From Escherichia phage DCP80, in sequence record PQ671644.1: 64,000 nucleotides of DNA, one strand, 5' to 3'. The notes beneath the pieces are model-generated. The model saw nothing but the letters and a program-made list of their open reading frames with translations, was not told the DNA's origin and did no database searches. A program made the translations under genes and the position numbers. This document shows, piece after piece, positions 2,473 to 15,125 of the stretch (positions within the stretch are counted from its first letter, which is position 1; each line of letters opens with the position of its first letter).

Positions 2473-3417
2473 TTAATAAAATTCAGCAATGTTTGCAGTT
2501 AGTTTAGACAGACCAGACTTAACAAAGTAAGGATAAACTTTACTTTTGGCTGGGATAACGTAGTTATTATATCGTTCTAAGATTGAAGCAGATATTTCCG
2601 TTGGGATAAAGTCCATATCAATCAACAATTGGTTTTCACAGAATCTATTATATTGCTCTTCTGTTAAAAGCGTTTTCAGCACGTCATGGTCGTAATAGTT
2701 GAGCGCAATTTGTTCAAGCTCGGCGGCACGTGTCGGTGGAGTACGTTCACCTTCTTCGTGAGTGTAATAAAAATCACCACGAACCTTGATGCTCGACACG
2801 TTATCTTTTTTGTCACCTTTAACAACCTTTGTCACGCAATCCATAAGGGCATCGCCTGATTTGGTTTTGACATATTTTTTCTGCATCGGGGACCATTGTT
2901 TCACCCCAGGGAATTTATGTAACTGGGTAAAGTCACCATCTGAAGAAACAACCATAACCGGATGGCCGAGACCAGTGAGCAATTTTGTTAATACCGCAAT
3001 ATGGTCATCAGCCTCGACTTTATCTATATTCATCACGATGTAAGGCATATGTTTTTCCATTTCATCGATGATGATGTGCATGGCAGCATGTAGACCTTCC
3101 CAATCGAATTGAGACTCTTCACGAGCTTTCGCACGGTTTTTCTTATAATAATAAGATTTAGTCCGCCGCCAATAGCCATTCTTCGAGTTATCAACACAAA
3201 TAATTGGAATCGTATAACCGAGCTTCTTGAACTGCACAATATTTTTTCTGATGGAGTTCAGAACCAGGTGTCTGGTCATTGCAGTTGTTACCTTCGGAAA
3301 GCCTGCGTCTTTGCCGAATTCCTGGAAGGCTGCAGCCATGATGAGCTGACTAAAATCGAGTAACTGAAAACCATCTTTTTGACGGTCTTCTTCAGGGAGT
3401 AAAAAATCTAAATTCAT
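2473..3417 (-). CDS. rnh: RNase H (5'-3' exonuclease / flap endonuclease)
   Basis: 314-aa ORF; matches T4 RNase H (GYWRR, YYKKNR.KAREES, DWEG, ADDHIAVL, SSDGDFTQLHK, KGDKKDNV, AGLSKLT). Confidence 0.9.
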   Translation of the reverse strand: MNLDFLLPEEDRQKDGFQLLDFSQLIMAAAFQEFGKDAGFPKVTTAMTRHLVLNSIRKNIVQFKKLGYTIPIICVDNSKNGYWRRTKSYYYKKNRAKAREESQFDWEGLHAAMHIIIDEMEKHMPYIVMNIDKVEADDHIAVLTKLLTGLGHPVMVVSSDGDFTQLHKFPGVKQWSPMQKKYVKTKSGDALMDCVTKVVKGDKKDNVSSIKVRGDFYYTHEEGERTPPTRAAELEQIALNYYDHDVLKTLLTEEQYNRFCENQLLIDMDFIPTEISASILERYNNYVIPAKSKVYPYFVKSGLSKLTANIAEFY

Positions 3418-3474
3418 ATGAACCTCTGTTCAATTAGTTGACTCGATTATATTAGCATAAAATTTTTAAAGCAA

Positions 3475-3482
3475 TATAAATA
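3475..3482 (+). promoter_or_regulatory. late promoter TATAAATA for gene 34
   Basis: Exact TATAAATA about 30 nt upstream of the gene 34 ATG. Confidence 0.6.
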
Positions 3483-3512
3483 CACGTATACCAATCAATA
3501 AGGATAAAGCAC

Positions 3513-4510
3513 ATGGCCGATATTTTAAAACCAGCATTCAGAGCAACATCCGGTCTCGATGCTGCTGGTGAGAAAGTCATTAATGTCGCGAAAGCTGATT
3601 ACTCAGTTTTATCAGACGGCGTTAACGTAGATTTCTTTATAGAAGAAAACACAGTTCAACAATATGATGCGACACGAGGATACAAAAAGAACTTTGCAGT
3701 TATTAACGATAACCGTATTTGGGTTGCTCAACGTGATATCGCGGCTCCGGCAGGAGCATTTACCCCTCAGTATTGGTTAGCAACCCGTACTGACCCGAAA
3801 TGGGAAACTGTTGCATCTCCAACTCGTCAGCTTAGCTCGGGTGAATTTATCGCGGTCGACTCAGCTGCAAGCTTTACCACATTTACATTGCCTCCGAACC
3901 CGACTGATGGTGATACCATCGTTATTAAAGATATCGGTGGCAATACCGGTTATAATGAAATCAAAGTTCAATCGAGCAATGTACCTGGTCAAGGTAACCA
4001 AAAGATTGTTCGTTTCGGTAACCAATTTACTGAAATATTAATCAGTAAGCCGTTCTCTTATAATATGCTTATTTTCTCTAACCGCTTATGGCAGTTCTGG
4101 GAAGCAGGTAACGAAGAACGCGGAATAAGAATTGAACCAAGCTCTGGCAAATATCGTGCACAGGCAGCAGACTTTATTATGCGCCATTACACGACCGCAG
4201 AGAAGATTACATTTGTTCTTCCTAAGTATGCTAACCAAGGCGATATTGTCAAATCAGTAGATATAGATGGATTAGGGCCATTATACCACCTGGATGTTGA
4301 AACGTTTGACGAGTCAAGTTCTCTGGGTAAACAAGGCCAACACAGTATGGAATTCCGTACTACTGGTGATGGTTTCTTCGTTTATAATGCCACCGAAAAA
4401 TTGTGGGTGACCTGGGACGGTGATAATAAAACTCGTTTGCGTGTAATTCGTGACAATGTAAAATTGTTACCAAACGAAAGTATCATCGTGTTCGGTAATG
4501 ATAACAACAC
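3513..4510 (+). CDS. 34: long tail fiber proximal subunit gp34, N-terminal 332 aa (truncated by N-run)
   Basis: Translation matches T4 gp34 N-terminus (DGVNVD, ENTVQQYD.TRGY, PAGAF, IFSNRLWQ, PLYH); AAGGA RBS; divergent to rnh as in T4. Confidence 0.9.
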
Positions 4511-4520: not shown

Positions 4521-4632
4521 TTAGAAACACGTACAATATCACCAGCTTCAACTTTCATAATTTTCTCTCTTGGTTAATAAGTTTATTCTCCAGCAGGGTC
4601 ATTATACTCTGACCCCAAGAGTTTGTACACAC

Positions 4633-5388
4633 TTAATTAAAAATTTCAACAACCATGGAACGTGGGACGACAGTAAATTCACCAGCATGGACAACGTTCA
4701 GGAGTTCAACACCATCTTCAATCCACTGATCTGTTACCCAACCACAAATGGAACTGTTAAATGGGCGTTTGATTTGAACTGGTTTACATAGCAAGTCAAT
4801 AGGGTCACCCAGTTCGCTAACTTCTTTCAGCAGTACAGATTCACGCGGATAAAGGATAGCTTCAAGATTGTCACCTGATTCATTAACCGCAGTAAATTCA
4901 AAGATGCTTTGGTGATTGTGGTACTTAACTGTTTTAACGGTAAATGGAGCAAATCCAAAAATACCTTTTAGTACACGCCAACCAGCATGCATTGCAACGG
5001 TCTTTCCAAACTGACTGGCATCTTCAATAAGCTGATAGGTTTTACCAACTTTGATAGGAGTTTCTTCAACTTCTTTGAAGAGTTCAATCTCAGCTTCATA
5101 AACCATAATTTTTTCTACTTCATTTGTATCAAGGCGACGTGCATGTAGAATATATGCTTTATCAAACCAGTTACTTTTTACAAAAGTTTCAACAATAAAT
5201 TCACCTTCGCCTAAAGCATCAGTCAGAGTATTATACCCAGAAACCATAGCTGCGTTTTGAATAATAGGTTCAATCAGTTGATAAGTTTTGTTAATTTCAA
5301 TAGTCATATTTTGTTTCTCAAGTTTTAATGGTTTAATTGGACGAACATACATACTTACAATATCAAAGTCAATAAATTCTGGTTTCAT
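4633..5388 (-). CDS. hypothetical protein (251 aa) with internal duplication
   Basis: Long ORF downstream of dexA in the early operon; contains repeated KTYQLIE segments; no family recognised. Confidence 0.5.
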   Translation of the reverse strand: MKPEFIDFDIVSMYVRPIKPLKLEKQNMTIEINKTYQLIEPIIQNAAMVSGYNTLTDALGEGEFIVETFVKSNWFDKAYILHARRLDTNEVEKIMVYEAEIELFKEVEETPIKVGKTYQLIEDASQFGKTVAMHAGWRVLKGIFGFAPFTVKTVKYHNHQSIFEFTAVNESGDNLEAILYPRESVLLKEVSELGDPIDLLCKPVQIKRPFNSSICGWVTDQWIEDGVELLNVVHAGEFTVVPRSMVVEIFN

Positions 5389-5645
5389 TATGCAACCTTA
5401 TTGAACATCGCCAGTTGATTAGGTTGTACAACCATAATTTCACGACGACCTTTTGCGTTTGACACGTTTAGGTAGATGCCTTTGTTCATGTCTGTTTCTT
5501 TATCATATACCGCAATTTTATTGACAGTAAAGATTTTACCACGAATATTTGCAAATGCACATTCAAACGCTTTAGTCAGACCTGCTTCAGCAGCTTGAAG
5601 AGCAGACATTTCATATTGTTGGCCAATTTCAAAAGAAGTAATCAT
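5388..5645 (-). CDS. hypothetical protein (85 aa)
   Basis: ATG at 5645 with GAGGA RBS inside the conserved leader; track ORF starts further upstream at 5693 within the promoter region. Confidence 0.5.
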   Translation of the reverse strand: MITSFEIGQQYEMSALQAAEAGLTKAFECAFANIRGKIFTVNKIAVYDKETDMNKGIYLNVSNAKGRREIMVVQPNQLAMFNKVA

Positions 5646-5676
5646 TTTGTTGTCCTCATCAGTAGTTGATGAGATG

Positions 5677-5706
5677 ATTATGTCTCTTTCCATTGACCTT
5701 GTACAC
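5677..5706 (-). promoter_or_regulatory. T4-type early promoter
   Basis: Minus strand GTGTAC-18nt-CATAAT followed by CATCAACTACTGATGAGGA. Confidence 0.5.
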
Positions 5707-5712
5707 TACTTT

Positions 5713-6396
5713 TTATCGTTTTTTCGGTAAAGATAACGGGTCTGCATCTTCTTCGGAAGGAACTTCATCCAAACCAAGGGCATAGCGCTGGGCATACTTC
5801 AACATCAAAATATCTTTCGCGCAGTCATGTACCGAATCGTGCGCCACGAATCCATCTAAAGCCCCTTTCGGTAATGGGGTTTCACACATCTTACGGACGA
5901 GTGACAAGGCTTCGATTGCCGTCCTGATATCACGCTGGTTCCAGAATACAACCGGCTCCAGGCCATAAGTGTTCAATTCACGCTCAGGAATCCCCTCATT
6001 GCGCTGTAGGTCGCGGATAAGGTCGACAAACAACGGGAAGTCAAAAGACATTCCACGGCACCACATAAGGCTTTCGTATTTGTTAATTCCATTACCGTTC
6101 AGATAGTCAATCGCCTGTTGGATACCGGTCAGAGTATCAACATCATGTGCAGAAGGAGCCAGGTTAACACGAGCTTCTGCTGATTGCTTTTTCCACCAAC
6201 CCATGGTTGTTGTGTCGAACAGACGCTTACCTTTTTGATATTCGAGACTGAACTTAATACGTTTGCCGCGATTAACCAGGGTTTCGAATGATTCCACAAT
6301 AGCAGGGTCAGATTCGAATGTAATCAGAGCCAGGTCAATAACGGCTCCCTTCGAGCCGTTTCCCAGAGTTTCAAAGTCAATAATAGCATCAATCAT
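5713..6396 (-). CDS. dexA: exonuclease A (DexA, DEDD-type)
   Basis: 227 aa (same length as T4 DexA); IIDFETLG motif near N-terminus; position immediately downstream of dda. Confidence 0.75.
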   Translation of the reverse strand: MIDAIIDFETLGNGSKGAVIDLALITFESDPAIVESFETLVNRGKRIKFSLEYQKGKRLFDTTTMGWWKKQSAEARVNLAPSAHDVDTLTGIQQAIDYLNGNGINKYESLMWCRGMSFDFPLFVDLIRDLQRNEGIPERELNTYGLEPVVFWNQRDIRTAIEALSLVRKMCETPLPKGALDGFVAHDSVHDCAKDILMLKYAQRYALGLDEVPSEEDADPLSLPKKR

Positions 6397-6628
6397 CGCA
6401 CATCTCTTTTAATTTCTGAATTTCGCCAGCAACATAGTCGGAGATAAAAATCCCTGGCTCTTCATTGTTAAAATATTCAATCGCGGCCATACGTTTCCGA
6501 ATAAGGTCCAGTTCCAGTAAAACGTAATTGCCCTGTTGGACGATAGTCGGATTATCTTCGAAAAATTCAACGGCATCTTTAATACCGTAGATGAGATTAT
6601 CTAAATCTTCTTTATGTACCTTATACAT
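6389..6628 (-). CDS. hypothetical protein (79 aa; dexA.2 position)
   Basis: Start chosen at the Met shared with the duplicate copy (52561..52800); 8-nt overlap with dda. Confidence 0.5.
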   Translation of the reverse strand: MYKVHKEDLDNLIYGIKDAVEFFEDNPTIVQQGNYVLLELDLIRKRMAAIEYFNNEEPGIFISDYVAGEIQKLKEMCDD

Positions 6629-7949
6629 AATATGCGTCGTACCTCGCTCGTGTGATTCCAACATAAGCCAACTGGCTCGCTAATGAAGCTTCGGCCATAT
6701 GGATGCATGGAGTATAGATGAATGCTTTGTCCACTGAAACGCCCTGGGCCTTGTGGATTGTACTAACCGGAAGAGCACGAACTTTCAAGAAGGTCCGGCG
6801 AGCTTTCCAGAAGTCTTTCCACTCTGGACGTTTACCAGCGGCTTTCATCTGTTTGTATGTGTCAGCAACTTTAGCCAGATATGCCTGGAATTTCGGTTGC
6901 TGGTCTTCTGGTAAAACTTTGATGCGGTCAACCTGATATTCTTCATCTTCATCAATTGACTCAACTTCCAGGTCCCAGTAATTAATCACTAACTGGTGCG
7001 ATTCACCTTTACAACGGAGAATTGTGGAAGTGTATTTGCAATCCTTGATGCGAACCAACTGACCATTATTAAAAATGGTTTCGCTGAATTTCTTGCCTTC
7101 AAATTCCAGCTCTTTCATGTGTGGCTCTTGCATAACCAGGACTTCATACGGTAAAAATGCTTTATCCGTTTCATAGAGCTTGCGACGAATAATATTGTTC
7201 AGTTTTTCAACTGATTTATTCGTGTACGCATACATCCTGTTTTCCATCAACATATCAGCATCTTTTACAATACCGAAATAGTTTACCATGAAATCCTTTA
7301 AAGCGGTTTGTGAGGTAAAACCCTGCACACCATGACCATCATACATACAGTCGCGGAACCAACCACCATTGCGAATTTCTGTCGCCACTTCAATGATAGG
7401 AGCATTGCTTCGCATGACTTCAGTCAGATGAATCTGTTTGAACTTAGGATGCGTAAAGAATGGGCTTATCTTTTGTTGTGTGCTTCCTGGGTCAACTGGC
7501 TGCAGCTGGTGCATATCACCAATCCCAAGAATAGTACACCATTCAGGAACAGAGTTAAGAATAATCTTAAACAGAGCCCCGTCATACATACTTGCTTCAT
7601 CACAAACCAGAACATTGCATTTTGACATGTCAGGCATTTCGCGCTGTTCAAAAACGTTTTGGTCTTCATATGTGGTCGGGTTAATCTTCAGAATACTATG
7701 GATTGTATTCGCCGTTTGACCAGACAATTTAGATAAAACTTTTTTCGCCTGGTGAGTTGGTGCAGCAAGTACAATTCCCATAACTCCATTACGCACTAAA
7801 TGGTCAATGACAAATTTTGTCAGAGTAGTTTTACCTGTACCAGCTGGACCATTCAGAGTGATACATTCCCCTGAACGTCGCTGAATAGCTTCAGTGATAT
7901 AATCAAAAGCTTCTTTTTGTCCTGTGTTCAAGTCTTCAAATTTAATCAT
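6621..7949 (-). CDS. dda: Dda DNA helicase (SF1)
   Basis: 442 aa; matches T4 Dda (GPAGTGKTTLTKF, LAAPTH.AKK.LSKLSG, CDE.SMYD, PFFTH, FNNGQLVRI, TPCIH, YVG.TR.RYD). Confidence 0.92.
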   Translation of the reverse strand: MIKFEDLNTGQKEAFDYITEAIQRRSGECITLNGPAGTGKTTLTKFVIDHLVRNGVMGIVLAAPTHQAKKVLSKLSGQTANTIHSILKINPTTYEDQNVFEQREMPDMSKCNVLVCDEASMYDGALFKIILNSVPEWCTILGIGDMHQLQPVDPGSTQQKISPFFTHPKFKQIHLTEVMRSNAPIIEVATEIRNGGWFRDCMYDGHGVQGFTSQTALKDFMVNYFGIVKDADMLMENRMYAYTNKSVEKLNNIIRRKLYETDKAFLPYEVLVMQEPHMKELEFEGKKFSETIFNNGQLVRIKDCKYTSTILRCKGESHQLVINYWDLEVESIDEDEEYQVDRIKVLPEDQQPKFQAYLAKVADTYKQMKAAGKRPEWKDFWKARRTFLKVRALPVSTIHKAQGVSVDKAFIYTPCIHMAEASLASQLAYVGITRARYDAYYV

Positions 7950-8245
7950 GCCAATTTTACTCGCTTAACATATAAAGTATCTAAAACTAATTTCAATTCT
8001 CGTGCGTGTTCTTCAGTAGGAAAAACAGTTTTTGTTTCCCGCTTATCAAACCACCATTTTCTGGGAATATACCGTGTTTCAATACGTCCCATGCGTAAAT
8101 AGCGGTTTGTAGTATATGAATAGTTGGCAAGTTCATACTCTGCGCCCGGTTTTGTGGTGTATAAGGTAACCTTTCCATCATACTCCAATGGGCGTTCAAA
8201 ACCATCTTTATCTTTGTGGACCAGCACATATGCGTAGTACATCAC
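7946..8245 (-). CDS. hypothetical protein (99 aa; dda.1 position)
   Basis: ORF overlapping dda start by 4 nt; 93% identical to duplicate at 50944..51243. Confidence 0.5.
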   Translation of the reverse strand: MMYYAYVLVHKDKDGFERPLEYDGKVTLYTTKPGAEYELANYSYTTNRYLRMGRIETRYIPRKWWFDKRETKTVFPTEEHARELKLVLDTLYVKRVKLA

Positions 8246-8246
8246 A

Positions 8247-8990
8247 TTAACCTCTAATCAGTTTAAAAATTGACGCGTTCAAAGGTAGACCTTTTTTCAG
8301 TTTAAGGCGGTCAATGAATGACAACTTATCTAAACGCTCCAGACCTTGAATAATTTTATCATACATATCGTAACGCGTTTCAGCGTCAGATGATTTCATT
8401 TTCAGACGCCAGTCAGGACCACCCATAACCATTTTCAGCCCGCGTTGACTAGTTCCGATGGAAGCCATTTGTCCATGGATACGAGCCTTGACTGCAATCA
8501 CAGAAGGGGTGGTATCTTTAGCGCCACTTTTATAAAGCTCTTTTAAATGTTTTTGACGCTTCTTGATTCCACGTTCGGTATCTTTAATATTTTTAACAAT
8601 TTTGCGAATTTTATAATAGTCAGCAGGAGTTACTTTAAAACTATTGGGCATCTTAGAACCGCCATTAATACGCACCGCCAAACGAGTCTGCGCACGTTTA
8701 AGTTCATCAAGAGATAAATCAGCACGTAAACCGTTGTACTTAGTTTTGACAGGGATAACATTGCCTTCAATATAACCTATATCATTGTTAAAGCGTTCAA
8801 AGGAAACTTTATCTTGAGTTGAATTTTCATCAAAACGTTCACCAGAATACGCACAGAATTCTTGTTTCAAAAGATTGGCGATATACTTACTAGACAGATT
8901 GAAATCCTTGTTACGACGTTTTGCAGACGTTTTGGTATGCTCGCGACGTTTGTAAACTTTCAATTCAAACTCTTCTTTTGACATATTCAT
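8247..8990 (-). CDS. hypothetical protein (247 aa) at the srd position
   Basis: ORF with own early promoter; conserved N-terminal block (AKRR.KDFNL, CAYSGE, ERFNNDIGYI.GNVIPV) and C-terminus shared with the diverged copy at 50196..50942. Confidence 0.55.
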   Translation of the reverse strand: MNMSKEEFELKVYKRREHTKTSAKRRNKDFNLSSKYIANLLKQEFCAYSGERFDENSTQDKVSFERFNNDIGYIEGNVIPVKTKYNGLRADLSLDELKRAQTRLAVRINGGSKMPNSFKVTPADYYKIRKIVKNIKDTERGIKKRQKHLKELYKSGAKDTTPSVIAVKARIHGQMASIGTSQRGLKMVMGGPDWRLKMKSSDAETRYDMYDKIIQGLERLDKLSFIDRLKLKKGLPLNASIFKLIRG

Positions 8991-9036
8991 GATATTTTTC
9001 TCATCTTACGGACGATTGAAAACTCAGTATGGATTC

Positions 9037-9065
9037 ATTATACACTATACATCTTTTATGTACAC
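9037..9065 (-). promoter_or_regulatory. T4-type early promoter
   Basis: Minus strand GTGTAC-17nt-TATAAT followed by GATTCATACTGAGTT leader. Confidence 0.5.
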
Positions 9066-9146
9066 TACTTTTTAGCCTTTAACGCTTTTATTTTTACTGT
9101 GTATAATGGTTCTAAGGTCTTTGGCCTTTTGTTAACCCAGAATACT

Positions 9147-9659
9147 TCAGTAAGAAAGAACGGAAAGATTCCATAATTTATAGTCTTCCCATCTATAAAT
9201 GCTCTCAATAGAGTCCACGCGTAGCGTAGTTCCCGCAGGGAACATCATCTCATCTTCATCATTTACTAATTGTAAGTTTGAAGAACGAGTTATTTCAGGA
9301 TATAGTCCGTTGAACTCTTCAGGAGGTGCCGCACAAATCATTTTAAAAATCGCTTCCTGATAATCAAATGCGAATGGTGCATCATTAATACAGAAAATAT
9401 TTTTGGTTCCATAGAAGCTAAAGGAAGCAAAGTTACGCGCAACACTGAAATCTTTGGAGAAACTCATTACACGGTCAAACTCAATCGTAGCACCAACACA
9501 TCCTACGGTTTCAAGATATGCCAAAGTTTTCTTAGAAATCCCGCGATATAACTTACCAGGCACAGCAGAAGTCAAATTCTTACGAATAATTTTGTTCAAA
9601 GTTTCCTGGATAGTGTCTGGCTTATTTTCCATGCACTGCCAGAGTGTACTCTGTTCCAA
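9147..9659 (-). CDS. ADP-ribosyltransferase-like protein (ModA/ModB-like, R-S-E class)
   Basis: 170 aa; candidate catalytic triad pattern: Arg in LYRGISKK, SFSKDFS (S-x-S), and EDE (ExE) near the C-terminus; position upstream of srd/dda as modA/modB in T4. Confidence 0.5.
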   Translation of the reverse strand: MEQSTLWQCMENKPDTIQETLNKIIRKNLTSAVPGKLYRGISKKTLAYLETVGCVGATIEFDRVMSFSKDFSVARNFASFSFYGTKNIFCINDAPFAFDYQEAIFKMICAAPPEEFNGLYPEITRSSNLQLVNDEDEMMFPAGTTLRVDSIESIYRWEDYKLWNLSVLSY

Positions 9660-9759
9660 CTCAGAGTAAATTTCATCAATTTCAATCTGGGTATTTTCGC
9701 GAAAATATTCACATTTAACTGCATTGATGTACTCTGCTAATTGGTGACTTGCGTACAGC

Positions 9760-9800
9760 NNNNNNNNNNNNNNNNNNNNNNNNNNNNNNNNNNNNNNNNN
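9760..9800. other. N-run (scaffold junction)
   Basis: 41 n. Confidence 0.95.
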
Positions 9801-9818
9801 TGGGTCAAAACAAACATA

Positions 9819-10178
9819 TTAACCTCGCTTCATGAAGGCATTAAAAATCTGGTCATCAATATCAGTAGGCGGTTCTTGAGCTTTGACCCAAGCCCCTTCC
9901 AGAATGTCATTTGCTTCAGTAGATATCATGACCCCAATTTCAGGGTTTCCGGTTATCCATACTGCACAATCGCGGACATTCTTTTTATCAAATGGATAAC
10001 CACGATTATCTTCACAAGGCCCATTCATTGTCATAAATGAACGAGCCTTTATGATAACATCATCTTTAACGATAATATAACCAATCGCCTGATTATAACG
10101 AGGCTCACGAAATTCATAGTGAGCATTACCATTATTATTGCTCACCAGTTCAAAATTCAGAAAATTATAATAACTCAT
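9819..10178 (-). CDS. hypothetical protein (119 aa)
   Basis: ORF ending ...DDQIFNAFMKRG; C-terminal 11 aa shared with the upstream neighbour. Confidence 0.5.
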   Translation of the reverse strand: MSYYNFLNFELVSNNNGNAHYEFREPRYNQAIGYIIVKDDVIIKARSFMTMNGPCEDNRGYPFDKKNVRDCAVWITGNPEIGVMISTEANDILEGAWVKAQEPPTDIDDQIFNAFMKRG

Positions 10179-10179
10179 A

Positions 10180-10620
10180 TTAATCTCGCTTCATGAAGGC
10201 ATTAAAAATTTGGTCGTCAACTGAATATACAGGGGTTTCCAGAAGTTTCAAAAGACTGTTTTTAATGTACTTACCCGGGATACCCATATTAACAATACTG
10301 TCATTCAATTCATTATCAGGGTTGATGTCTTTAAATTCAAACCCATCAAATTCAACCTTGTCAGGAATACCATCAGCGAAAAAATAAACCAATTGGTGCA
10401 TTGTATTGCGCGAAAATAATTTAGACTTGACCGCAATAAGTTCTTGCCAATGGTTTAATTCTTTGTTAAGAAGTTTATGAGCAAACGTAATTCTATTATC
10501 ACTATCAACAAGAAAATAACCCAGGTATTGAATGGGTTCGTCGCTCCAAAACATCCTGTATGCTTGTGCATTTTGATTTTTACAACGAAGTTTTTTGATA
10601 ACTAGAGTTCTGTTAATCAT
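10180..10620 (-). CDS. hypothetical protein (147 aa; 61.2 position)
   Basis: ATG at 10620 lies 1 nt after the sp stop (TAAAATG coupling); ends ...DDQIFNAFMKRD. Confidence 0.5.
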   Translation of the reverse strand: MINRTLVIKKLRCKNQNAQAYRMFWSDEPIQYLGYFLVDSDNRITFAHKLLNKELNHWQELIAVKSKLFSRNTMHQLVYFFADGIPDKVEFDGFEFKDINPDNELNDSIVNMGIPGKYIKNSLLKLLETPVYSVDDQIFNAFMKRD

Positions 10621-10621
10621 T

Positions 10622-10915
10622 TTATTCACCTGTAACCCATTGAACAATCTTGCTGTTGTCAAATGAAGCATCGCAATACAGAACATAGTTATACTGCATA
10701 ACATCACCAGAAGTCAATTGGTCAGATACTTCTTTAACCATATCAGGACGGTCACGTTTAGTAATATTCATGATGTCAGCATAAATCTGATGTTCAACAT
10801 CAGCCTGGTCAGCAGTCATGGACCACTCGCAAAGGTCTTTATCAAGTCCAGCAGTAACTGGAGCTGTGCCACATGATGCTACGGTAAGAATTGCTGCGAT
10901 TAATAACTTTTTCAT
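10622..10915 (-). CDS. sp: spackle periplasmic protein (Sp)
   Basis: 97 aa (as T4 Sp) with signal peptide MKKLLIAAILTVASC and DKDLCEWSMTADQ, DIMNI.KRDRP, VMQYNYVLYCD motifs. Confidence 0.85.
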   Translation of the reverse strand: MKKLLIAAILTVASCGTAPVTAGLDKDLCEWSMTADQADVEHQIYADIMNITKRDRPDMVKEVSDQLTSGDVMQYNYVLYCDASFDNSKIVQWVTGE

Positions 10916-10943
10916 TTCAATCTCCTCAGTAGTTGATAGGGAT

Positions 10944-10973
10944 AATATACTGCATTATCCCTATGTTGTACAC
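10944..10973 (-). promoter_or_regulatory. T4-type early promoter
   Basis: Minus strand GTGTAC-18nt-GATAAT, then CTATCAACTACTGAGGAG leader. Confidence 0.45.
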
Positions 10974-11177
10974 TTATTTTTCGTTAGAACGATAATCATA
11001 TTCAAAAACTTTATTGTCATTAACAAAGGCTTTAACCAGTGCATTATTCACTTCTGCATACTGCACTGTAATCCATTCAATCATATTTTTGTCACTGACA
11101 TCTAGCGCGGTTTCTTTGGTAAACATATTACCATTTTCAAACCAACCAATAAACACTACGTTCTCTAATTTATACAT
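10974..11177 (-). CDS. dmd: Dmd (discriminator of mRNA degradation; antitoxin of RnlA/LsoA)
   Basis: 67 aa; matches T4 Dmd (VVFMGWF.N..MFTKE, QYAEVN.ALVKAF.DD.KV). Confidence 0.8.
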   Translation of the reverse strand: MYKLENVVFIGWFENGNMFTKETALDVSDKNMIEWITVQYAEVNNALVKAFVNDNKVFEYDYRSNEK

Positions 11178-11495
11178 TTAGATTTCCTCACAAAACGCCC
11201 AGGCGGCGTGATAAACTGTTGCACCTTTAGTGTCATTTAAACAAACCACGTCAACAGGTGCAATCACACGATAAAGACGGGGTTCTCCTCCATATGAGCG
11301 AGCTGCTCTTCCTGCATAGATACGCGCCAAACCAATATCTTCAGTAAAAAACACACGCCCTAAATTTTTCTTACGCCCAACTTCTGACAGAACACCAGTT
11401 GCATCAGGAGGACAAAGCATATTTTGGATTCCAGCATTAGAGCTTGAGCCATGATAATAAACTTTGTATTCTGCCTTGCAATCAATGGTTTTCAT
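11178..11495 (-). CDS. hypothetical protein (105 aa) with H-G-S / Y / E pattern
   Basis: Stop abuts the dmd start (co-transcribed); GGAG RBS; contains VYYHGSSS, RVFFTED, RLYRV segments loosely reminiscent of H-Y-E-type NAD-binding folds (speculative). Confidence 0.5.
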   Translation of the reverse strand: MKTIDCKAEYKVYYHGSSSNAGIQNMLCPPDATGVLSEVGRKKNLGRVFFTEDIGLARIYAGRAARSYGGEPRLYRVIAPVDVVCLNDTKGATVYHAAWAFCEEI

Positions 11496-11530
11496 TTTAT
11501 TCTCCAGTAGTTGATAGGGTCATTATAACA

Positions 11531-11558
11531 TAAGAAAAAGGGGCTTACAGCCCCTTTG
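11531..11558 (-). terminator. hairpin terminator after the 100-aa gene
   Basis: GGGGC-TTACA-GCCCC hairpin followed by U-run on the minus strand. Confidence 0.5.
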
Positions 11559-11563
11559 TTCAC

Positions 11564-11866
11564 TTACGCCAACTCATAGTTGTGCATAGTCAGACAACGA
11601 ATTTTCCCAGTAGTTGGGTGCATAACAGTCACACTAATTGTGTAATCATCACACACGTTAACAAAAGGTTCGGCGATAACATATACTGCCCCACCTGCCA
11701 ACAGGTACTCACGAAGAGAGCTGCGAACAGATGAAGGTTGAACATCGCTTTTGAGCTTTATTAATTTACCAGTTTGAATGCCTGATGCGATAAGAGCAGC
11801 ACAGTTTTCATCACGGCGAGCGAACTGACCAAAATAGTAACGGTTCATATCGGTTTGATTAAACAT
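11564..11866 (-). CDS. hypothetical protein (100 aa)
   Basis: ORF with early promoter upstream and terminator downstream; no family recognised. Confidence 0.5.
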   Translation of the reverse strand: MFNQTDMNRYYFGQFARRDENCAALIASGIQTGKLIKLKSDVQPSSVRSSLREYLLAGGAVYVIAEPFVNVCDDYTISVTVMHPTTGKIRCLTMHNYELA

Positions 11867-11915
11867 ATGGTTTTCCTTTTAACAGTTGGTTTATTGTGTA
11901 ACTCAGTATGGAATC

Positions 11916-11945
11916 ATTATGTCCTAAGACAAGGGGCTTGTACAC
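11916..11945 (-). promoter_or_regulatory. T4-type early promoter
   Basis: Minus strand GTGTAC-18nt-CATAAT then GATTCCATACTGAGTTAC leader. Confidence 0.5.
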
Positions 11946-12193
11946 TATTTTAATTCATTAATTAAATGAAAATCTTGTGCATTGAAAGTAATGAAAAAAT
12001 AATCATTCCCTTCAACTGAAGCATGACAGGCAACACTACACCAGCGCCTTGCTCTGTTCAAGGAGCAATCCAAAATTTTAAAAGGCTTCAGACCAACAAT
12101 GGCAGCTGTTCTTTTATTATGCTCACAAATATCAGCATACTTTTGGAGAGCTTCTTCAGATTTGAACTGGTAATGCACATTAACTAATAACAT
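11945..12193 (-). CDS. hypothetical protein (82 aa)
   Basis: ORF with GAGGA RBS and own early promoter between gene 41 and dmd. Confidence 0.5.
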   Translation of the reverse strand: MLLVNVHYQFKSEEALQKYADICEHNKRTAAIVGLKPFKILDCSLNRARRWCSVACHASVEGNDYFFITFNAQDFHLINELK

Positions 12194-12224
12194 TTTATTA
12201 TCCTCATCAGTAGTTGATGGGATA

Positions 12225-12254
12225 ATAGTACACCCTTTTTATGGTGATGTAAAC
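12225..12254 (-). promoter_or_regulatory. T4-type early promoter (GTTTAC / TACTAT)
   Basis: Minus strand GTTTAC-18nt-TACTAT then CATCAACTACTGATGAGGA leader. Confidence 0.4.
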
Positions 12255-12261
12255 CTCTAAA

Positions 12262-12286
12262 TGAAAAAGACCCGAAGGTCTTTAGA
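12262..12286 (-). terminator. terminator after gene 41
   Basis: AAGACC-CGAA-GGTCTT hairpin with U-run on the minus strand just past the gene 41 stop. Confidence 0.5.
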
Positions 12287-13721
12287 ATTTCATTTGAGCA
12301 GCAAGGTCGTCCAGGTCGCTCCTGTTGACCCTGGTTTGTCTATTCATTTCAGCCTGACGATTCATCTCACCGGTGGCTTCTTTAACCGTAGGGCCTTGTT
12401 TAGGAGCTGAATCATCATCAACCTCGTACCAGCGCTGATTACCTTTCTTAACACCCATCTTGAATTTATTATAGTAGTTCTTATCGCCATAACGAGACTT
12501 AAGCTGTTTGATTAACTGTAGTCCCATTTGAGCGAATTCTTCGGTCTCAACAACACCCAACATAAAGTCGGCCGTGTGAGCAATACCAAAGGATTCTGCG
12601 ATGTCAGCCATATCAATCTCAGCTGCAACGTTCGCACCCCTGGTTGTCTGCGCTGCAGTCCACAGGACTACATTTTTCTCAACAGCCAGACCACGAAGTT
12701 CTTCTGCAACCATCTTAATCAGGCCGTAACTGTTTTCGGTAAACGTTTTCAGTCTTGAGCTTGCACAGATTGCCAGGTAGTCAACAATAATCACATCCGG
12801 CACAAACCCTTGCTTCAGTTTGTATTCATTCAATAATGCACGGAAGGTATCTGCATGAGCGCCGCCAGTTGGATATTGTTTTATCTTCAGAGTCCCAAGA
12901 GTCCCGGAAGCACGCCACTTTTCCATCTTAGCTTTATATTCCGCCCATGATATATGACCTTCATCAATATCATCCAGAGATACATCCAGCAAGTTGGCAT
13001 CAATACGTTTGGCACATACTTCTTCAGCCATTTCCATGCTTATATAAAGAACATTATGACCAGTCTGAAGATAGTCAGCAGCTAACGAACAAAGTCCAAG
13101 AGATTTACCGACGTTTGTCCCGGCCAGTAAAACGTTCTCTGTACCGTACTCAACCCCACCCTTTGTGATTTTATTCAGGATGTTAATACGGAACGGAACC
13201 TTCTTCGATTTGTTCAGATAAGTCTGGAATCGAGCTTCGTAATCGTTTAACCAGTCATGGCCCAGAGCAGAGTCAAAACAGATAGACAATGCATCGCGCA
13301 TGATGTCGGGGATAGCACCAATATCCGGGATTCGTTTATCACGTTTATCTTTCGGAAGTTCGGCATTACTCTGGATTTCGATAATCCTGGATGTGGCATT
13401 GAACATCGCAGACTTCTGCACATACTTCTCGGTTTCTTTAACCAACCATTCCTGGTCTTCTGGAGTATCGGCCAGGACTCCTAAGAGTTTCTTTGTGCCT
13501 TCATATTCGACTTCAGAAAGGTCAGAACTGTCGAGCGCGATATCAAGTGCAGTCTTAGTTGGTACCGCTTGATATTCTTTTACGTGTTCGTTAATCGTAT
13601 TAAAAAGAGTCTTCGCGGGACCCTTTTCAAAATATGTGTTATTCAGATACGGCCAGACTTTAACAAAATATTCCTTGTTAAAGAGTAGCTGGGATAAAAT
13701 AGTTTCTACCACTTCCACCAC
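12282..13721 (-). CDS. 41: replicative DNA helicase gp41 (DnaB-like)
   Basis: 479 aa; matches T4 gp41 length and motifs (Walker A GTNVGKS, ISMEMAEE); uvsX-40-41 order. Confidence 0.92.
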   Translation of the reverse strand: MVEVVETILSQLLFNKEYFVKVWPYLNNTYFEKGPAKTLFNTINEHVKEYQAVPTKTALDIALDSSDLSEVEYEGTKKLLGVLADTPEDQEWLVKETEKYVQKSAMFNATSRIIEIQSNAELPKDKRDKRIPDIGAIPDIMRDALSICFDSALGHDWLNDYEARFQTYLNKSKKVPFRINILNKITKGGVEYGTENVLLAGTNVGKSLGLCSLAADYLQTGHNVLYISMEMAEEVCAKRIDANLLDVSLDDIDEGHISWAEYKAKMEKWRASGTLGTLKIKQYPTGGAHADTFRALLNEYKLKQGFVPDVIIVDYLAICASSRLKTFTENSYGLIKMVAEELRGLAVEKNVVLWTAAQTTRGANVAAEIDMADIAESFGIAHTADFMLGVVETEEFAQMGLQLIKQLKSRYGDKNYYNKFKMGVKKGNQRWYEVDDDSAPKQGPTVKEATGEMNRQAEMNRQTRVNRSDLDDLAAQMKF

Positions 13722-14050
13722 CTCTTTTTCATTTTAATTTTATCAATTTCATCTTGTATTTGCATTGTAACACACTTTTCTACATGCACAGCAAGCTCCG
13801 CTTTGCGGTCTTCAGAAGGGGTGCCGAAATCAACTGAAACTTTTCCAGATGGTTCAATTTTAATTCCGGTTACGTACACAATGTGACTGGACCCATCAGG
13901 GAGTGATAACAGAATTTCCTGTCGTACGGTTCCCATGGATTGCCGGATAATCTCCAAACTTTTTTCGTAGTAAGGTACAGAAGGAGCCTTAGCTCCCTCC
14001 GCATCTTTCTCGAAATTATCTAAATCAGATAAATCGATATCATTCATCAA
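13706..14050 (-). CDS. 40: gp40-position protein (head vertex assembly factor in T4)
   Basis: 114-aa ORF between uvsX and 41 as in T4; identification by position and size only. Confidence 0.55.
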   Translation of the reverse strand: MMNDIDLSDLDNFEKDAEGAKAPSVPYYEKSLEIIRQSMGTVRQEILLSLPDGSSHIVYVTGIKIEPSGKVSVDFGTPSEDRKAELAVHVEKCVTMQIQDEIDKIKMKKRWWKW

Positions 14051-15030
14051 GGTCTTCCATCATATCTAAATCGTTTTCGATATCTGCCGCAGACGGTTTT
14101 GTCTTACCTTCAGGAGCAGTGTATTTTTCAACCTTGGAGGCAATAAGCGCATCAACTTCGGCATCAACAACAGCATTGCTATCGATTGCACCCAGCTGGT
14201 AATGGCGTTTGATTGCGTCACGGAAAGGTTCGTGCTTGAACAACGGGCCCCAGAATTCGGTGCAGTTAGTATCTTTTGCGCGCCATGATTTTTCTTCGCG
14301 GACCATTTCACCGGTCTCAACATCAAGATATTCACGGTTATACCAACCAACTTTCGGTTTCACCACAAATCCGATTTCCATTGCCATATCAAGCAGGCCA
14401 GAATACGGGTCAATACCGCCATCGAATTTTACATCAATGAAGAATTTACTTTTCTCTTTGACCATACGAGATTTTTCGGCGTTCAGAACAAATTGGAAAC
14501 CTTCAAGTTCTTTACCAGTTTCTTTAATCTGGCGTTTGCCGATAATGAATACGGTGTCTGCGGAATACATAACACCTGTACCACCGGTCATAACGGTTTT
14601 GCTATACATCTCAATCGTCTCGATTGTATGGTTAACCGCGACACAAGGAATATCCTTGATGCTAAAATATGGAGTAACAATACGGAACAGAGATTTCAGG
14701 GATTTGGCACGAGTCATATCGCCAACAACTTTTTCGTTCATCGCATCTTCTGTTTCTTTTTTCGACGCCATGTTACCGATTGAGTCAATAAAGATAATGA
14801 CTTTTTCACCACGCTCAATTGCTTCAAGCTGGTTAACCATATCAACTTTCAATTGTTCAACCGACTGGATTGGTGTGTGGATAACACGTTCCGGGTCAAC
14901 TTTCATTGCACGAAGATAGGCTTCTGTGATACCAAATTCTGAATCATAGAACAAACAGATTGCATCGGGGTATTTGTTCATATATGCAGAGACCATCGTT
15001 AAACCCATATTGGATTTAAAGTGTTTTGAC
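14040..15030 (-). CDS. uvsX: UvsX recombinase (RecA-like), N-terminus lost in N-run
   Basis: RecA-fold core (FIDSIGNMASKKE) and C-terminal acidic tail; frame runs into the gap. Confidence 0.9.
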
Positions 15031-15080
15031 NNNNNNNNNNNNNNNNNNNNNNNNNNNNNNNNNNNNNNNNNNNNNNNNNN
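15031..15080. other. N-run (scaffold junction)
   Basis: 50 n; gene 62 and regA expected after 44 in T4 are absent, so the flanks are not contiguous. Confidence 0.95.
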
Positions 15081-15125
15081 ACGCAACCTCATGTTCGTTT
15101 AATTGAACGTCATCATCAAAGAGAC

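Follow-up and report, generated by a model that had tools for sequence, protein, structure and literature searches.

A predicted minimal Arr/Tpt1-like ADP-ribosyltransferase-fold protein encoded next to dmd in Escherichia phage DCP80

The 64,000-nucleotide stretch of Escherichia phage DCP80 analyzed here (PQ671644.1; "the window," to which all coordinates refer) carries three small open reading frames (ORFs) of 82, 100, and 105 amino acids (aa) between the replicative helicase gene 41 and dmd, all on the minus strand. The last of these, ORF105 (11178–11495), is predicted from sequence and structural modeling to be a minimal ADP-ribosyltransferase (ART) core of ~95 residues resembling Arr and Tpt1, distinct both from a true Arr and from the classical H-Y-E toxins. 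On balance we favor the reading that ORF105 is an early, host-directed ART acting independently of Dmd, and we infer both its activity and its target. An earlier note on this DNA, made from the sequence alone, had proposed the three genes as candidate anti-defense or host-takeover factors, and its coordinates are confirmed here; selection and/or the existence of homologs indicate that all three are real genes. The phage belongs to a known, already sequenced lineage, the SP18-like Gaprivervirus: positions 10900–12300 are 98.9% identical to Shigella phage SP18 (Gaprivervirus, Tevenvirinae) and 97–98% identical to ~12 related coliphages. In the SP18 annotation one of the three ORFs is a "goF mRNA metabolism modulator" and the other two are hypothetical proteins.

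ORF105 is followed directly by dmd (10974–11177, minus strand), which encodes a 67-aa antitoxin against RnlA and LsoA (Pfam Dmd, PF17587, 1.2e-20; 74 bits where the cut-off is 27; 56% identical to its T4 counterpart). The stop codon of ORF105 abuts the dmd start, exactly as the earlier note had described (...GAGGAAATC TAA ATG...; stop 11178–11180, start 11175–11177), and the Shine-Dalgarno sequence of dmd lies inside the 3' end of ORF105, where GAGGAAATC comprises the C-terminal Glu-Glu-Ile codons and the ribosome-binding site. This Glu-Glu-Ile tail (11178–11186) is encoded by GAGGAAAT, which doubles as the ribosome-binding site of the next gene, and Dmd in three related loci (L005, L010, and L014) has the same ...IEEI ending, likewise encoded by GAGGAAAT. 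Because the tail-coding GAGGAAAT is also the ribosome-binding site of the following gene, protein tails here are in part shaped by translational coupling.

An AlphaFold2 (AF2) model of ORF105, built with 35 homologs, has six core strands and one long helix (predicted local distance difference test, pLDDT, 85; predicted template modeling score, pTM, 0.76), and this predicted structure corresponds to the split beta-sheet ART core fold. In structural comparisons Tpt1 was a better match to the model than Arr, with PARPs, cholera- and pertussis-type toxins, DarT, and RES toxins ranked lower. A comparison with predicted viral structures yielded a 94-aa phage protein, 34% identical to ORF105, that bears the name "Rifampin ADP-ribosyl transferase." At the sequence level ORF105 matches PHROG 2110 ("unknown function"; 1.3e-58). 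Searched alone it had no Pfam match at E ≤ 1 and nothing above threshold in NCBIfam or PADLOC, and PDB sequence searches gave no match with either the single sequence or a profile of its close family (A1). A profile search of 1.84 billion cluster representatives recovered 243 relatives. The ORF105-like domain matches Pfam Arr-ms (PF12120; curated cut-off 25 bits) in 6 of 10 multidomain homologs scanned (20.5–29.4 bits), four of them above the cut-off. In a broad alignment of 28 members (A2), Arr-ms is reached by 19 at E ≤ 1, with 2.5e-8 the lowest value. The best solved-structure matches of the A2 profile are Arr 2HW2 and 9IAF (E 0.01), with H15 of ORF105 paired with Arr H19 and F49 with Arr Y49. 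The alignment to 2HW2 ends at Arr residue 82, homologs of the domain cover only positions 1–67 of the 99-position Arr-ms model, and no DPN motif occurs anywhere in ORF105.

Arr is distinguished by the critical residues H19, Y49, and D84, an HGT motif, a catalytic Asp84 within DPN[V/L], and rifampin contacts at N86, S99, and V140 (PMC6092378). ORF105 carries H-G-S at residues 15–17 as the counterpart of the HGT motif, and an essentially invariant Phe takes the place of Arr Tyr49. Across 107 distant representatives of the family, H15, G16, E38, R41, F49, T51, A57, Y60, A61, G69, and G70 are conserved in at least 95%, with H15, G16, and Y60 present in 100% and F49 in 98% (otherwise Tyr). The His of strand 1, part of Y-H-G-[ST], together with an aromatic side chain on the core strand that follows, is consistent with a putative NAD+ site. 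The family also has an invariant loop, Glu-x-Gly-Arg-Lys-Lys-Asn (E38, R41–N44), and the ratio of nonsynonymous to synonymous substitution rates (dN/dS) for ORF105 is ~0.1. Where the fifth core strand begins, the classical catalytic Glu would be expected; this position appears to be occupied by Y95, and is Tyr, Phe, or Leu across the family. We take the F49/Y60 spacing to be like that of Y54 and Y65 in diphtheria toxin, with Y95 presumably at the E148 position, a register drawn from sequence. The motifs VYYHGSSS, RVFFTED, and RLYRV, which the earlier note had quoted in likening the protein to H-Y-E-type NAD-using folds, are indeed present; the fold part of that suggestion stands, based on the confident model and on distant homologs that reach Arr-ms, but the canonical Glu is not conserved. 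Because this third residue is missing, ORF105 looks Arr/Tpt1-type rather than classical H-Y-E.

ORF105 differs from each of the characterized ARTs compared with it. Arr (PF12120; 2HW2, 9IAF) has 143 residues to the 105 of ORF105, which ends ~40 residues sooner, and DPN/Asp84 and the C-terminal ~60 residues of Arr, including the rifampin contacts cited above, are all without counterpart. Only the NAD lobe of Tpt1/KptA (9LD3, 7KW9) aligns with ORF105, over 73 of 179 residues; ORF105 is too short to hold the N-terminal RNA-binding lobe of that two-lobe architecture, which in Tpt1 carries most of the Arg-His-Arg-Arg catalytic tetrad. The phage anti-CRISPR ART AcrIF11 (6KYF) shares 20% identity over aligned residues and has no sequence-level match. 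T4 Alt, ModA, and ModB are NAD+-dependent, as ORF105 would be, and are likewise used at or just after infection, but they fall in another clade, marked by an R-S-E motif, are roughly double the size, and have proteins as their targets. ModB has also been reported to attach RNA to proteins. A homolog of these enzymes is present in the window as a 170-aa ModA/ModB-type ART (9147–9659, minus strand), which shares 99% identity with the "ADP-ribosylase" of phage RZ and 37% with the modA and modB regions of T4.

Homologs of ORF105 were found by tblastn in 609 of 50,697 phage records, the hosts including Escherichia (215), Klebsiella (116), Acinetobacter (68), and Aeromonas (62), among others. Most copies are 60–90% identical to ORF105, from coliphages through Aeromonas and Acinetobacter phages, and a few GenBank records name the homolog "rifampin ADP-ribosyl transferase." The first 50 kb of T4 contain dmd and no ORF105 homolog. 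In other phages the same domain is built into larger proteins: it occurs in a tape-measure-like protein (3924 aa), in a CHAP-domain protein, in a fusion of a lambda-type portal with a 2H/Acb1-like domain, and in proteins whose further domains are ART-PolyVal, NUDIX, GNAT, or Toprim (P0136, P0149, P0162, P0171, and P0176 among them, with the combinations ART-PolyVal with NUDIX and GNAT with Toprim). Such proteins, virion-associated or "polyvalent," are presumably carried into the host, and because the domain sits in them, a host-directed effector at the very start of infection would fit. Acinetobacter phage Acj61 (locus L064) encodes, four genes away from its ORF105 homolog (Acj61p060, 1890–2213), a nicotinamide phosphoribosyltransferase (Acj61p064, 3229–4001), an NAD+-salvage enzyme. 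The Acj61 homolog is located in the variable region on the primase side; Spackle is close by, and the 4 kb that were examined carry no annotated dmd.

Iyer et al. (2022, Viruses 14:1977) described a "p0068"-family ART together with the Dmd antitoxin as "a novel type-II T-A system" in Escherichia, Shigella, and Salmonella phages, speculating on RNA targets, and noted Dmd next to a Mod-like ART in some Klebsiella phages (PMC9503650). The p0068-like ART has the same position immediately upstream of dmd in Escherichia and Shigella T4-like phages (PMC9503650) and was described as among the most frequent viral ART families, matching the 609 phage records of ORF105; that the two families are the same is deduced from the published description, and the homologs in Acinetobacter phages 133 and Acj61 are p059 and p060, not p0068. 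Where Iyer et al. read a toxin-antitoxin pair, the distribution found here argues for independent genes. We surveyed 56 IMG/VR loci with an ORF105 homolog by applying a Dmd profile to the downstream gene. Dmd was immediately downstream in 11, all of Gaprivervirus, Dhakavirus, or Mosigvirus type, and the remaining loci had Spackle (Pfam 1.3e-16), a small peptide, an unrelated larger protein, or nothing within 40 nt. The earlier note's proposal that physical coupling to dmd marks a functional unit does not hold as a conserved feature. The translationally coupled gene varies by lineage (loci L006 and L016–L018; L019–L030; L008 and L013), its types being a 41–46 aa acidic peptide with four conserved Cys (zinc-ribbon-like), in Klebsiella-type phages a 55–60 aa hydrophobic peptide with an ATGA overlap, and Spackle. 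Dmd itself occurs in 797 phage records, almost all from Escherichia, Shigella, Yersinia, and Salmonella phages; ~550 of these are <60% identical to the Dmd of the window, a band that holds the T4-type records listed, and judging from sequence these ~550 Dmd-bearing phages, T4 included, appear to lack the ORF105 ART. The two distributions thus overlap only in part, and T4 has dmd without the ART, so that an obligate relation of toxin and antitoxin is unlikely, with the coliphage lineages in which the genes abut as a possible exception. Phages UPEC01 and VR20 have a 113-aa ORF directly after dmd (L002, 2575–2916, minus strand; L003, 3532–3873, plus strand) whose similarity to Dmd is weak (Pfam E 0.0017, under the cut-off; BLASTP 2e-6 with the Dmd of the window). 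It may be a divergent second Dmd; the window has no copy of it.

In the reading that we prefer, ORF105 would be produced in the first minutes of infection, on one transcript with dmd. NAD+ would be held by the Y-H-G-[ST] strand (H15) and the aromatics F49 and Y60, and ADP-ribose would be transferred to a host or infection-related acceptor. A phosphate or hydroxyl would be a likelier acceptor than a classical protein side chain, because the nearest relatives Tpt1 and Arr use such groups, no classical Glu is present, and the family keeps a basic, invariant E-x-G-R-K-K-N loop. Among such acceptors, the ends of RNA or DNA, the kind used by Tpt1, would come first and a small molecule, as for Arr, second. 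ORF105 would work without Dmd, the two lying side by side as residents of one early counter-defense cluster rather than as a toxin-antitoxin pair. What the analysis shows is the structure of the genes, the fold and family relationships, the conserved residues, the distribution, and the variability of the neighbors; that the gene is transcribed early, that its product binds NAD+ and is catalytic, the class of acceptor, and the benefit to the phage are steps that we infer. The argument from neighborhood made in the earlier note has published backing: in the T4 region between genes 41 and 61, dmd, tifA (61.4), and adfA (61.2) are three proven counter-defense genes, inhibiting RnlA, ToxN, and DarT, respectively (PMC9391042). 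ORF105 may have an anti-defense or host-takeover role.

We lean toward regarding the stretch as part of this gene 41–gene 61 variable ("hyperplastic") region. All of its genes are on the minus strand. Upstream lie uvsX (14040–15092), gene 40 (13706–14050), and, as the boundary of the cluster, gene 41 (12282–13721; PHROG 19 DnaB-like helicase 1.2e-124; Pfam DnaB_C 2.4e-13; gp41 in SP18). These are followed by ORF82 (11945–12193), ORF100 (11564–11866), ORF105, and dmd, with sp (Spackle; 10622–10915; Pfam T4_Spackle 2.4e-43) as the downstream boundary. In T4, dmd directly follows gene 41 after 58 nt, as the earlier note had it, and its description of the three genes as inserted holds when T4 is the reference. 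ORF105 is nevertheless a widespread gene, apparently ancestral and since lost by T4, and only ORF82 and ORF100 are lineage-specific additions; with ages and distributions that differ, the three did not arrive as one insertion.

The genes are separated by regulatory elements, all on the minus strand. The terminator scan found a terminator-like hairpin, AAAGACC-TTCG-GGTCTTT with a T-run, overlapping the gp41 stop codon (12266–12283), and a UUCG-loop hairpin also follows gp41 in the VR5, JS98-type, and VR20 loci. Before ORF82 (12208–12253) the promoter scan placed an early-promoter-like site, GTTTACA-17-TACTAT (12253–12225), with a conserved leader ...CCCATCAACTACTGATGAGGA (repeat families D3 and D8). 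ORF100 is preceded by a similar site, GTGTACA-17-CATAAT (11916–11944), and followed by a second terminator-like hairpin, AAAGGGGC-TGT-AAGCCCCTTT with a T-run (11537–11557), the loop of which provides the weak -35 of the ORF105 promoter. ORF105 itself has a perfect -10, TATAAT (11522–11527), read from the sequence, and a conserved leader CCCTATCAACTACTGGAGAA (11505–11527; repeat family D5) in common with the sp leader at 10927–10949; the promoter-like site before sp is GTGTACA-17-TATATT (10944–10972). A leader consisting of CCYATCAACTACTG and a purine-rich ribosome site recurs before sp, ORF105, and ORF82. The sites before ORF82, ORF100, and sp share a T4-early-type consensus, G-T-[TG]-T-A-C-A, 17 nt, TAnnAT, and the scan returned 27 promoter-like sites, where the expectation for DNA of this AT richness is 14.8 ± 4.1. 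The earlier note had assigned each gene its own early promoter, which is borne out at consensus level for ORF82 and ORF100, but ORF105 has only its TATAAT and a weak -35. The ORF100 leader AACTCAGTATGGAATCATTAT (11900–11920) is repeated at 9021–9041 with 95% identity (repeat family D6), upstream of a 247-aa basic ORF with no Pfam match (8247–8990, minus strand), which, because the leaders are 95% identical, looks like another copy of the ORF100-type regulatory cassette. An Rfam scan of 10500–12500 gave sub-threshold matches only.

Gene order among relatives runs gp41-ORF105 in VR5 and JS98-type phages, gp41-ORF100-ORF105 in VR20, and gp41-ORF82-ORF100-ORF105 in the window, with the same hairpin, promoter, and leader elements at these indel junctions. 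Promoter-early/stem-loop (PeSL) cassettes (Arbiol 2010, PMC2839356; Comeau 2014, PMC4122927) mediate gene shuffling in T4-type variable regions (PMC4122927), and combine a terminator hairpin and an early promoter in the same way, coinciding with indel boundaries. The likeness rests on description and consensus, stem-loop terminators and early promoters between the variable-region ORFs being recognizable at consensus level. Each of the three genes would, we think somewhat more probably than otherwise, be a separate early-gene cassette bounded by a PeSL-type element.

Remote-homology and structure prediction, which the earlier note had suggested for all three proteins, gave for ORF105 the Arr link through distant homologs and the confident model described above, and connected ORF82 to T4 GoF, but found no relatives of ORF100 outside its genus. 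ORF82 matches PHROG 2980 ("goF," 3.6e-20) and is 33% identical over 63 aa (residues 4–64) to the N-terminal part of T4 GoF (ComC-alpha; E 1e-7), which belongs to the same PHROG. The homology does not extend to full length (82 versus 141 aa); ORF82 is without the C-terminal half of GoF, and T4 goF lies between cef and gene 39.2, whereas ORF82 lies in the 41–61 region. ORF82 is probably a short paralog of the N-terminal part of GoF, as far as these similarities can tell. Its homologs occur in 83 phage records, and it is 57% identical to RB3_036, an 84-aa gene present in 71 Tequatrovirus records; in RB3 it is found across dmd from the ORF82 position, between 61.4 and sp. A large protein search with ORF82 returned the identical cluster only. 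A zf-CGNR assignment for ORF82 (E 0.002, below cut-off) was rejected, the cysteines not being kept in the RB3 homolog or in T4 GoF. ORF100 appears from its distribution to be an orphan gene limited to Gaprivervirus, found in 21 phage records of that genus, all at least 94% identical, and forming a single cluster among 5.8 billion proteins. It matches PHROG 17014, to which no function is assigned, its AF2 model is unusable (pLDDT 43), and a PADLOC match to LmuC (E 0.04) was dismissed as noise. Its dN/dS of 0.12–0.14 against VR25/VR26-type loci indicates purifying selection.

The assembly bears on which genes in the window are true neighbors. An N-run of 41 nt at 9760–9800, one of several spaced ~5 kb across the window (13 more besides), conceals a ~5.5 kb discontinuity relative to SP18: window 4600–9760 corresponds to SP18 6904–12071 (dda, srd, dexA, modA), and the window from 9800 corresponds to SP18 from ~17644. 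Genes for Soc, gp56, primase gp61, and 61.1, which precede ~17644 in SP18, are not represented in the window. Because of this discontinuity the genes flanking the N-run are not true neighbors, and a link between the dmd cluster and the ModA-like ART at 9147–9659 was rejected, their proximity being an artefact of the join. Beyond the N-run, two adjoining genes of unknown function (9819–10178 and 10180–10707, both minus strand; PHROGs 4122 and 8539) have a common tail, DDQIFNAFMKR[GD], and a 45-nt direct repeat (9815–9859 and 10176–10220; 93% identical). At E 1.5e-4 this tail hits the C-terminal 14 residues of Pfam AdfA (anti-DarT factor A), and it matches the 3' end of T4 gene 61.2 as well; the two genes look like variant AdfA-like modules with a C-terminus in common.

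Several points count against ORF105 being an active, independent ART. ORF105 itself falls below every Pfam, NCBIfam, PADLOC, and PDB sequence threshold, the link to Arr is transitive with a profile-to-PDB E-value of only 0.01, the E38/R41–N44 loop is the least confident part of the model (pLDDT 61–75), and the equivalences with Y54, Y65, and E148 of diphtheria toxin come from sequence register, not from superposition. The preference for a nucleic-acid acceptor is the weakest step. With no conserved acidic residue at the canonical position and no aligned counterpart of Arr Asp84/DPN, there is room for an inactive binding protein: a non-catalytic ART remnant that kept its NAD+/ADP-ribose pocket and either soaks up NAD-derived immune signals or serves as a decoy for, or an inhibitor of, host ART defenses such as DarT and CmdT. 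Very small size (96–112 aa) in a neighborhood of genes whose products bind host toxins, Dmd, TifA, and AdfA (PMC9391042), would suit such a role, and host ART defenses against T-even phages are known, DarTG (PMC11825919) and CmdTAC (PMC11618068). We nevertheless consider it doubtful, since the near-invariant H15, G16, F49, Y60, E38, and R41 are the residues expected of a working NAD+ site, the closest relatives Arr and Tpt1 are active without a Glu at the canonical position, and the company of other enzymes in polyvalent proteins suggests an enzyme. Arr being the best sequence-level relative, and a few GenBank records bearing its name, might also suggest a true Arr ortholog that inactivates rifamycin-type RNA polymerase inhibitors and so shields the host polymerase used by the phage. 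This is highly improbable given the truncated length, the missing DPN (Asp84) and last ~60 residues, a score for ORF105 below the Arr-ms threshold, and the better structural match to Tpt1.

Whether ORF105 belongs with Dmd at all is a separate matter. The TAA-ATG junction and the ART-then-Dmd order in Gaprivervirus, Dhakavirus-like, and Mosigvirus-like loci (spacings +1, -3, and -24 nt by ORF calls) are also expected of a two-gene module, neither promoter nor terminator separates the genes, and a harmful host-directed activity would fit the presence of ORF105-like modules in proteins presumably delivered to the host. A type II module in which ORF105 is the toxin and Dmd, besides blocking RnlA and LsoA, its cognate antitoxin is the published prediction (Iyer, Burroughs, Anantharaman, Aravind 2022; PMC9503650). 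It seems improbable to us in view of the hundreds of phages of Klebsiella, Acinetobacter, Aeromonas, and Enterobacter that have ORF105 without a detectable Dmd, the ~550 that appear to have the reverse, and the syntenic loci with Spackle or an unrelated small peptide after ORF105. Moreover, tight packing and translational coupling are normal in T4-type early regions, and strictly lytic phages such as these have no need of an antitoxin to a toxin directed at the host. Another view, that the three ORFs are passengers moved by the shuffling of regulatory cassettes, with no special relation to defense and an uninformative place beside dmd, gains from the cassette boundaries and indel variants among close relatives, from published PeSL shuffling (PMC4122927), from the ORF82 homologs on the opposite side of dmd in RB3, and from the location of ORF105 away from gp41 in many Klebsiella-type phages. 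Set against this, all three genes are under purifying selection or conserved across genera, a dispensable passenger would not usually keep the 60–90% identity that ORF105 shows among T4-like phages very distant from one another, and the region is enriched in proven counter-defense genes, which leaves passenger status an unlikely account. Returning to an active ART, a more specific version would make ORF105 one of the smallest self-sufficient ARTs (~95 residues), with an unconventional catalytic set of His/Phe/Tyr for NAD+ and an invariant Glu38/Arg41 loop, ADP-ribosylating RNA or DNA phosphate ends or a defense-related small molecule and serving broadly in Straboviridae as a counter-defense or RNA-protection enzyme overlooked since T4 lost it. 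We regard this as a tentative and rather unlikely conjecture; in a variant of it, Dmd would moonlight as a regulator of ORF105 in the coliphage lineages with abutting genes.

Literature searches for experimental work on the ORF105 gene family found none. The family as an ART was probably defined earlier, a pairing with Dmd that fits this one was published as a prediction in 2022 (PMC9503650), and the sequences were already in GenBank; the present finding is a correct re-discovery of a computationally described gene. What is added here is the Arr/Tpt1 link, the set of conserved residues, the occurrence of the domain in virion and polyvalent proteins, and distribution evidence against an obligate ART-Dmd pair. 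ORF105 was most likely overlooked because the model phage T4 is without it, and yet it is a very strongly conserved, enzyme-like gene in the region that yielded Dmd, TifA, and AdfA. If it is an active ART with a nucleic-acid or small-molecule target, it would be a fourth, mechanistically different T-even ART beside Alt, ModA, and ModB, and would offer a minimal scaffold for studies of ART catalysis.

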